Positions 26,604 through 27,761 of a stretch of DNA of 64,000 nt are shown piece after piece. The notes beneath the pieces were generated by a model, which was not told where the DNA came from, searched no databases, and was given only the letters and a program-made list of their open reading frames with translations. Origin of the DNA: Pyrinomonadaceae bacterium (GTDB lineage: Bacteria; Acidobacteriota; Blastocatellia; Pyrinomonadales; Pyrinomonadaceae); contig JBPCNX010000025.1 in the NCBI GenBank assembly GCA_051000815.1, positions 721 through 64,720 of the forward strand. The letters are read 5' to 3'. The translations under genes were made by a program, and so were the position numbers. Every line of letters begins with the position of its first letter. Within the stretch, counting starts at the first letter, position 1.

Positions 26604-27761
26604 ATGGCCGAAAAATACGAAATCCAAAGAACGTCTCTTCAATCGGCCGCGGTTTCGGATAAGGTGCTCACCGAGACGAAAACCACGAGGCTAATTCTTC
26701 GACCTGAAATTGTTGGGAATCCCAGAAACCCCGATGCTAGAGTCAGCATTTCGCTAATCCATCAACGCAAGTCTTCCAAAGGCGACTGGGAAGATGCGCC
26801 CACTGAGCCATTGACGAAGTTAAAGGCTGGAGAGAAGGTAAACTTCAACCTGCATAGCGAGCCTACACTGGAGCTGTTTCATCAGCTGGACAATCTCTTT
26901 ACGATTGCGACTAAGGGGAAAATTGGTTTTGGCAAGACTAGTTTGGTTGTAGGCCGGGAGGAAGAGATCATTCAAGCTGATGCTAGCCGCGCTAAAGTCA
27001 TCAGGCTTCTATTGGCTAAAGGATATTCCGATGACATCTGGATCGAACTTGTCCAGAGCGATCCGGATTTAGCAACGCGATTGTCCTATGCGCAGATCCA
27101 CACCCAAAGAAAAATCGCTCTTGAGGAGTTCCAAAGAAATCTTACAGAGGGCAAGAGCGAAGCATGGTGGCAGGACTTCTTTGAGAGAAACACTTGGATC
27201 TTTGGGTATGGACTCAACTACAAATTCATGAACACCCTCCAATCCCAGCCAAGCTATGGAGGGGTAAAAGTAAGCGGCGCAGGCATGCAGAAGGGAGACT
27301 TTTTGCAAAGGACTGAGGCTTATATCAAATTCACAGCGCTGGTCGAGATTAAGAGGCCGAGCACGCAAGTCTTAGGAAAGAAACAGTATAGGAATGGCGC
27401 GTGGGAGTTGAATGAAGAACTAAGCGGTGCTGTGTCGCAGCTTCACGCAAACTGCCGCACTTGGGAGATGGAAGGGGCGCAGTCGGTGCCGAACATCGAG
27501 GTTCTTTTAGAAGAGAGAACTTTCACAGTCCAACCCAAAGGAATTCTAGTAATCGGTAACACGAACCAACTGACCGACGCTTCAAAAAGGAATACGTTTG
27601 AGTTGTTCAGAAGAAACATCGTCAGCCCGGAAATCCTCACATTTGATGAACTGTATGAGCGAGCGAGATTCATCGTCGAGTCGACCAAGCACGATAGCGA
27701 ACCGGAGCCGAGCGATAACGAGAATGACGCGCCACTGGGTGACGACGATATTCCGTTTTGA
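26604..27761 (+). CDS. sduA: Shedu-type defence nuclease (DUF4263, PD-(D/E)xK) with SSB-like acidic C-terminal tail
   Basis: 385 aa. It carries EAWWQDFFERNTWIFGYG and D232...(15 aa)...E248-I-K250 (GDFLQRTEAYIKFTALVEIKRP), which match the DUF4263 nuclease core. It starts 17 nt after the hsdS stop and ends ...NDAPLGDDDIPF. Confidence 0.8.
   Translation: MAEKYEIQRTSLQSAAVSDKVLTETKTTRLILRPEIVGNPRNPDARVSISLIHQRKSSKGDWEDAPTEPLTKLKAGEKVNFNLHSEPTLELFHQLDNLFTIATKGKIGFGKTSLVVGREEEIIQADASRAKVIRLLLAKGYSDDIWIELVQSDPDLATRLSYAQIHTQRKIALEEFQRNLTEGKSEAWWQDFFERNTWIFGYGLNYKFMNTLQSQPSYGGVKVSGAGMQKGDFLQRTEAYIKFTALVEIKRPSTQVLGKKQYRNGAWELNEELSGAVSQLHANCRTWEMEGAQSVPNIEVLLEERTFTVQPKGILVIGNTNQLTDASKRNTFELFRRNIVSPEILTFDELYERARFIVESTKHDSEPEPSDNENDAPLGDDDIPF

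Follow-up and report, generated by a model that had tools for sequence, protein, structure and literature searches.

A Shedu defence nuclease ends in a portable C-terminal module resembling the tail of bacterial single-stranded DNA-binding protein

The gene sduA, located on the forward strand (26604-27761) of a 64,000-nucleotide stretch of contig JBPCNX010000025.1 of a Pyrinomonadaceae bacterium (hereafter the window), encodes a Shedu immune nuclease of 385 amino acids. Its last six residues, DDDIPF, are identical to the C-terminal tip (SSB-Ct) of SSB, the bacterial single-stranded DNA-binding protein. This module also marks a family of TIR-domain defence proteins and many phage replication proteins. 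Sequence comparison points to strong conservation of the tip in the Shedu clade to which the window protein belongs, and the tip may act by engaging proteins that hold the tail of SSB.

The open reading frame (ORF) of sduA translates into a protein with the C-terminus ...FIVESTKHDSEPEPSDNENDAPLGDDDIPF*. As an earlier note on this DNA had reported, the codons gac gac gat att ccg ttt tga occupy positions 27741-27761 and F385 is the final residue of SduA. The tip, D380-D-D-I-P-F385 (27741-27758, forward strand), is followed directly by the TGA stop codon (27759-27761), and the next gene begins 12 nucleotides downstream. The note had further described the tail as the last 25 residues, encoded from 27684. 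Here the codons and coordinates of the tip stand, whereas the string quoted (STKHD...IPF) comprises 26 letters, with Ser360 encoded by 27681-27683 and Thr361 starting at 27684.

The tip is carried by a disordered and acidic tether of about 17 residues, situated behind the final helix of the nuclease domain (residues 364-379, HDSEPEPSDNENDAPLG; 27693-27740, forward strand), the sequence of which is not conserved in homologues. An AlphaFold2 run on the SduA monomer with an alignment of 67 sequences, the output of which was the predicted local distance difference test (pLDDT) only, gave a confident body with a mean pLDDT of 73.8 and a value of about 35 for residues 364-385. The latter suggests a tail that is disordered and undocked in cis, and no rise in pLDDT was seen at the tip in this monomeric model. 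Together with a net charge of the tail of about -9, this agrees with the disordered acidic linker described earlier. Besides such a variable, low-complexity linker, SduA possesses all sequence-level elements of the SSB-Ct linear motif, namely a terminal Phe with a free carboxylate, Pro at position -2, a hydrophobic residue at -3 and acidic residues at -4 to -6. With ordinary amino-acid frequencies, the chance that a given protein ends exactly in DDDIPF is about 2e-8 by an arithmetic estimate. No other ORF with an SSB-like tip was found in the six frames of the window, nor was an ssb gene found within it. As alternative identities of the tip, a beta-clamp-binding motif, an FtsZ C-terminal peptide and a C-terminal degron were rejected, since none of these has an invariant terminal P-F after acidic residues.

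Conservation of the tail was analysed in 120 close homologues with 48-96% identity to the query. A tail ending in x-P-F is present in 62 of these, while 39 stop about 7 residues past the last helix and the others are truncated or end differently. In the 62 tail-bearing proteins, Pro at -2 is invariant (62/62), Phe at -1 is replaced only once, by Trp (61/62), and Ile or Val is found at -3 in 59; Asp or Glu occupies -4 in 55, -5 in 52 and -6 in 42 of the sequences. This order of conservation (F, P > I/L/V > D/E) matches that of the SSB tip. Positions -7 to -15 display an entropy of about 3 bits each. The tail of one homologue (P0006) is identical to that of the query, and those of two others (P0062, ...QDSEPTTGDSENDVPLSDDDIPF; P0002, ...QPSREAMADSENDVVLSDDDIPF) combine a drifting linker with a constant tip. 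Since the tip remains constant while the linker drifts, the pattern of conservation identifies the tail as a selected feature across a large part of this Shedu clade rather than a chance or strain-specific extension. The assessment in the earlier note that the hexapeptide represents the SSB tip and is unlikely to have arisen by chance is thereby borne out, together with the probability given above.

The survey of homologues proposed in the same note was run at greater distance as well. The tip is borne by 87 of 224 near-full-length relatives and, in metagenome contigs sampled independently at the DNA level, by 42 of the 77 complete genes, which excludes a strain-specific accident. Moreover, among 149 sequences representing 50%-identity clusters (32-64% identity), 36 have the same ending, and the tip keeps the SSB consensus down to a core identity of about 33%. 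Within the 224 relatives the most frequent hexapeptides are DDDIPF (13), DDEIPF (6) and DDDVPF (4), with Ile (52), Val (16) or Leu (10) at position -3. Tip-bearing tails extend by a median of 27 residues beyond the last helix, have linkers rich in E/S/D/A/T/P and carry a mean net charge of -5.8, compared with -1.1 for tail-less relatives. The further aromatic residue that precedes the tip in E. coli SSB (DFDDDIPF) shows a mild enrichment among the Shedu tails (15/87) and is absent from the query.

In addition to the canonical tips, tails ending in EEADF, DPWDF, DEISF, DDFQF, EDEDW, DEYPF or DLVF were found (P0134, P0140, P0154, P0167, P0178, P0197 and P0211; L028, L034, L038, L039 and L069). 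Those acidic-aromatic endings that lack the P-F pair may represent degenerate or alternative versions of the motif. Searching plasmids by tblastn yielded distant Shedu proteins only; the Streptomyces and Rhizobium examples have no tail, and the Shedu protein of a Phaeobacter inhibens plasmid ends in EEDTPF. A search of genome contigs with a single protein as query returned only two loci, both in Nitrospirales metagenome-assembled genomes. In three relatives (P0108, P0114 and P0214) the tail is replaced by a folded C-terminal extension of about 80-96 residues. The sole hit of this extension, in NCBIfam and below threshold, was a weak one to DnaX gamma/tau of DNA polymerase III (PRK14965, positions 438-522, E 0.045); Pfam and the Protein Data Bank gave nothing, and a word-index homology search with the extension was empty.

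The carrier of the tip is a Shedu nuclease by all measures applied. Pfam PF14082 (SduA_C/DUF4263) matches SduA with 112 bits against a cut-off of 27, and PADLOC assigns the protein to SduA (5e-72). Residues 3-358 align with residues 5-377 of the 382-residue Bacillus cereus Shedu protein (8ti8; E 2e-36), and Foldseek matches the AlphaFold2 model of SduA to 8ti9_A (E 5e-11, TMt 0.74), also to 8ti8, and to E. coli SduA (8ps4/8ps5) at 1e-5. The N-terminal sensor domain (SduA_N, residues 10-105; 26631-26918, forward strand; Pfam 1.7e-25) aligns with residues 5-106 of 8ti8 and is modelled with a pLDDT of 77-90. It is followed by the PD-(D/E)xK nuclease domain (SduA_C/DUF4263, residues 184-351; 27153-27656, forward strand; Pfam 3.3e-32), in which the catalytic residues D232 ... 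E248-x-K250 (27297-27353, forward strand) were located by aligned homologues. D232 and K250 are invariant among 67 homologues and E248 is found in at least 90% of them, the three residues aligning to the DFL...IEIK motif of the B. cereus protein. In terms of its domains, catalytic motif and predicted fold the window protein is thus a bona fide Shedu nuclease, as the earlier note had proposed for this DUF4263 protein. Searches of Pfam and NCBIfam revealed no SSB domain or oligonucleotide/oligosaccharide-binding (OB) fold in SduA, Pfam reporting SduA_N and SduA_C only; because the OB fold is absent, SduA is not itself an SSB. According to the preprint of Gu et al., B. cereus Shedu is a homotetramer that is activated by higher-order assembly, and its N-terminal domain (NTD) was modelled as an sPC4/Whirly-like, single-stranded-nucleic-acid-binding and autoinhibitory domain. 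Going by the Shedu proteins of B. cereus and E. coli, the SduA of the window would likewise form a homotetramer and have anti-phage activity.

In order to follow the history of the tail, its state was mapped onto a neighbour-joining tree of the 224 Shedu cores, with odd tails treated either as unknown or as tail-less. The state changes at least 27 times in the former case and 39 times in the latter, compared with 69 changes (minimum 59) for shuffled labels on the same tree. As judged from this tree, the tail is inherited in clades and yet has been gained or lost repeatedly. Among 27 phylogenetically independent pairs of tail-bearing and tail-less proteins, none of about 360 alignment columns tracks the tail (best p 0.004) and neither does the charge of any domain (Wilcoxon p 0.38-0.61), although this analysis would miss a docking surface common to all members. 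Tips also occur on Shedu proteins whose N-terminal ~190 residues fail to match SduA_N (P0140, P0159, P0191, P0192, P0257 and the Phaeobacter inhibens protein). As a separate observation, among the tip-bearing loci L008-L087 tips ending in LPF lie on contigs of lower GC content than those ending in IPF (mean 41% vs 48.5%; Mann-Whitney p 0.015). This difference, which is confounded by phylogeny, would fit a tracking of host SSB variants.

The tip is not restricted to Shedu. When Shedu-bearing loci totalling 629 kb were scanned in six frames for ORFs with an acidic x-P-[FW] end and a minimum length of 70 amino acids, the outcome was 45 Shedu genes and one other gene (L075:10460-11428, reverse strand; the same gene as L088:9001-9924), which encodes a 307-residue TIR-domain protein (TIR_2, 5e-20) ending in ...LKTDDIPF. 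Among 42 homologues of this protein (P0272-P0313), 15 carry an SSB-like tip and the other 27 have no tail at all. Nine of the tips read DDDIPF, two of them within DFDDDIPF, the octapeptide in which E. coli SSB ends; further endings in this family are TDDIPF (the query TIR protein), YSDIPF, RGDIPF, DTDLPF, DQVPF, DEAPF and DEEPF. The neighbourhoods of these genes are of the defence type: one lies inside a type I restriction-modification (R-M) operon together with a tail-less Shedu gene and a DUF3800 gene (L088), one adjoins NaeI/Dcm/Vsr and one adjoins a PIN/FitA toxin-antitoxin pair. TIR-type enzymes act on NAD+. Since such an enzyme has no DNA groove and would gain little from localisation, the presence of the tip in this family favours a role in sensing or as an adaptor.

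Viral contigs of IMG/VR (L091-L210) were searched with the exact DNA pattern for DDDIPF plus stop, considering ORFs of at least 60 amino acids. Among the matches listed, which comprise at least 111 viral DDDIPF ORFs, 33 match an OB-fold hidden Markov model derived from E. coli SSB and the remainder form about 38 clusters. These include SF2 helicases of 369-610 amino acids (ResIII 6e-25 and Helicase_C; L098, L131, L133, L162, L167 and L176), a DnaB_C helicase fragment (L208), Pam3 gp34-like proteins (L106, L127, L129 and L179) and several small families. The small families may include SSBs of a non-canonical type, for which the SSB of phage Enc34 offers a comparison (PMC5686142), but the helicases are not. 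Occurrence on TIR proteins and on phage proteins other than SSB characterises the SSB tip as a portable C-terminal module, and from its distribution it could serve as a general access tag for the SSB interaction hub.

In SSB, D-D-D-I-P-F is the docking site for at least 12 genome-maintenance enzymes. Its terminal Phe occupies, with side chain and carboxylate, a hydrophobic pocket that adjoins a basic residue, and a basic ridge accommodates the Asp residues (PMC3159472). The ssb113 mutation in SSB-Ct is highly detrimental to growth and replacement of the terminal Phe by Cys is lethal (PMC3159472). With moderate confidence, the Shedu tail is interpreted as a mimic of the SSB C-terminus which acts in trans, either as bait or as tether for proteins with SSB-tail pockets. 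Four observations point to a partner outside the protein. First, the tip keeps its consensus across deep divergence, which a conserved external pocket would explain, whereas nothing would hold back a tail that binds solely within its own protein from drifting. Second, the tip comes and goes without compensation in the core. Third, it is found on different N-terminal domains, and fourth, on a TIR effector.

As to the partner and the consequence of binding, we infer that the tails would plug into the hydrophobic-pocket-plus-basic-ridge sites of SSB-holding genome-maintenance proteins. As its B. cereus homologue is tetrameric, the SduA enzyme would match the SSB tetramer in presenting four tails of this type. 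Candidate partners are host proteins of the ExoI, RecQ, PriA or chi type, or phage recombinases and replication proteins that need the host SSB tail. Two outcomes are conceivable. The tail could tether the effector to replication or recombination intermediates such as forks and gaps, where the N-terminal sensor would meet its trigger. Alternatively, the tail could be bait in the manner of an integrated decoy, so that a phage SSB-Ct-binding protein which seizes it would cluster or unlock the effector; this version of the trans model is put forward only tentatively. The bait version is attractive because activation by higher-order assembly, as in B. cereus Shedu, could be promoted by multivalent capture, and because a TIR effector gains little from localisation alone. 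It also gains appeal from phage biology: phage recombinases of the RecT/Redbeta type rely on the SSB-Ct of the host (PMC13490951), phage recombinases are a target shared by many unrelated defence systems, whose mechanisms are unclear (PMC11846896), and escapers from E. coli Shedu were mapped to UvsW, a recombination helicase (PMC13434031). An extension of this idea, at present speculative, is that the SSB tail forms an integrated decoy common to several unrelated effectors, so far Shedu and the TIR family. RecT/Redbeta-type annealases, helicases or polymerases would then take the effector tails instead of the host SSB C-terminus, and multivalent capture by such phage proteins might gather the effector, be it nuclease or TIR enzyme, into clusters and activate it.

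Some results weigh against an action in trans. About 40% of close relatives have no tail whatsoever, which marks it as an accessory rather than a part of the core mechanism, and many of the other endings are acidic with a terminal aromatic residue and would suit a generic DNA-mimic tail equally well. The AlphaFold2 model is monomeric, so that docking in trans inside the tetramer is still compatible with it. Furthermore, host partners of SSB are constantly present, and a pure tether would therefore confer no specificity for infection on its own.

One rival reading is autoinhibition, in cis or within the tetramer, where the acidic-aromatic tail would act as a DNA mimic on the sPC4/Whirly-like NTD or in the nuclease groove and thereby raise the activation threshold. 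The tip of SSB folds back onto its own OB fold, and the tails of RecA and T7 gp2.5 act on their own proteins. A role of this kind would fit the charge of the query tail and the difference in mean charge between tip-bearing and tail-less relatives, the many non-canonical tails that are merely acidic with a terminal F or W, and the modelling of the B. cereus NTD as an autoinhibitory single-strand binder. However, in the 27 pairs neither basic residues nor domain charges change with the tail, the best p of 0.004 not being significant over about 360 columns, and pLDDT is flat at the tip. The at least 27 gains and losses were not accompanied by compensating changes, the tip is present on other N-terminal domains and on the TIR family, and a generic DNA mimic needs no strict x-P-F-COOH. 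Autoinhibition is thus considered rather unlikely, and the evidence leans towards docking or bait and away from autoinhibition in the nuclease groove.

Instead of a partner of SSB, the tail might bind SSB itself, be it that of the host or of a phage, through an OB fold that is free, whereby Shedu would join SSB pools or condensates or SSB-coated single-stranded DNA and be released or concentrated once single-stranded DNA appears. A tetramer with four tether-plus-tip tails would offer the same valency as SSB, and multivalent condensation of E. coli SSB is driven by its C-terminal peptide, linker and OB fold and dissolved by single-stranded DNA, according to a preprint (bioRxiv 10.1101/797431). 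This possibility is regarded as improbable, since it offers no obvious account of the tip on the TIR effector. In SSB, moreover, the interaction between tip and OB fold is weak. Less probable still is that the tail, in the manner of a PrrC-like guard, links the nuclease to the type I R-M enzyme encoded around it, where it might dock, for instance, on a surface with which HsdR or HsdMS binds DNA. The genes of the query and of several homologues do lie between hsdS and hsdR, and a tip-bearing TIR gene is found inside such an operon too. Yet according to a crude tblastn analysis this context is limited to about 30-45% of Shedu loci and is alike with or without a tail (7/24 vs 6/14 upstream), tip-bearing TIR genes are found in loci lacking type I R-M as well, and the motif fits SSB but no known R-M ligand. 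Finally, a neutral C-terminal extension that arose by chance and has no function could be suspected from the tail-less close homologues. It is effectively refuted by the nearly invariant P-F pair beside a freely drifting linker, by the recurrence of the tip at 33-50% identity and by the probability of about 2e-8 per C-terminus.

Within the window, sduA occupies the gap between hsdS and hsdR of a type I R-M operon, all genes of which lie on the forward strand in the order hsdM, hsdS, sduA, PDC-M04A/DUF3800, PDC-M04B, a HicB-like gene and hsdR. The product of hsdM (23867-25417) was identified from its ORF translation, which detects by tblastn HsdM-annotated genes upstream of homologous Shedu loci, and hsdS (25420-26586) from its Pfam Methylase_S domain. 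Downstream of sduA follow the candidate defence pair PDC-M04A/DUF3800 (27774-28484; PADLOC 6.6e-97, Pfam DUF3800) and PDC-M04B (28457-28996; PADLOC 9.6e-59), and then a gene for a HicB-like antitoxin of 70 amino acids (29256-29468; Pfam HicB_lk_antitox). The operon is completed by hsdR (29560-32748), likewise assigned from its ORF translation of 1062 residues, which matches by tblastn genes downstream of Shedu; in homologous loci these have the architecture HSDR_N/ResIII/T1RH-like_C. The M04A/B pair also follows the Shedu gene in two other loci (L002 and L047), and insertion between hsdS and hsdR recurs in this Shedu clade (L001, L002, L006-L012, L058, L064 and L075). The same slot is occupied by prrC in EcoprrI. 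The defence island is flanked by chromosomal housekeeping genes, comprising thymidine kinase (23032-23700, forward strand), UvrC (37911-39797, reverse strand) and an AddA/AddB-type helicase-nuclease pair (UvrD-helicase and PDDEXK_1; ADDB_N; 54821-62789, reverse strand).

A tip of this kind bears on how single-protein defences tell infected from healthy cells; many defence systems are known to respond to phage recombinases or SSBs. The tip on immune effectors represents a possible undescribed wiring of such effectors to the DNA-replication machinery. The Shedu structure preprints (Gu et al.; Loeff et al., 8ps4/8ps5) mention neither SSB nor an acidic or C-terminal tail, a 2026 review covers Shedu without mention of an SSB tail, and a literature search, with subscription papers mostly outside its reach, found nothing linking Shedu or defence effectors to the SSB tail. 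Within the preprints and literature searched, the view of the earlier note that the feature is undescribed for Shedu is therefore upheld. If the tail does act as bait or adaptor, a six-residue mimic of a host hub would be used as a sensor module, which would constitute a new design principle. Such a principle would be searchable proteome-wide and could predict which phage proteins trigger which systems; should the decoy interpretation be correct, it would amount to a general, motif-level sensing of the phage DNA-replication machinery. In addition, the SSB tip is mobile well beyond SSB, as seen in phage helicases and other phage proteins, which is relevant to drugs and tools directed against SSB-Ct interactions.

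Comparison with known systems reveals that the closest counterpart of the tail is the C-terminus of bacterial SSB itself. Both share the same hexapeptide at the exact C-terminus, a disordered linker, the same hierarchy of conservation and probably four tails per tetramer. In contrast to SSB, SduA has no OB fold, and its linker is short (about 17 amino acids) and rich in E/D/S/T/P rather than in G/Q/P. The carrier is moreover an immune nuclease instead of an essential protein coating single-stranded DNA, and the tail is dispensable in many relatives. With B. cereus Shedu (8ti8/8ti9; Gu et al.) the query has the NTD, linker and PD-(D/E)xK core in common; unlike the query, however, the B. cereus protein ends about 5 residues past the last helix and is tail-less.

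A second group of counterparts are the autoregulatory acidic tails of SSB, RecA, T7 gp2.5 and T4 gp32, which can compete with DNA for the binding surface of their own protein. Like the query tail they are disordered, strongly acidic and often terminated by an aromatic residue. They are, however, not restricted to x-P-F, whereas in Shedu no covarying basic surface was found in the pairs compared, and the tip is shared with a TIR protein not known to bind DNA. In the integrated decoys of plant NLR receptors, a host element that pathogens have to engage is copied into an immune effector, and its engagement thereby signals infection. The putative bait of Shedu would differ from these in that the copy is a linear motif of six residues and not a domain. 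Finally, the phage DDDIPF replication proteins carry the same terminal hexapeptide on non-OB carriers. In contrast to Shedu they are phage-encoded and presumably recruit parts of the host or phage replisome for the benefit of the phage.

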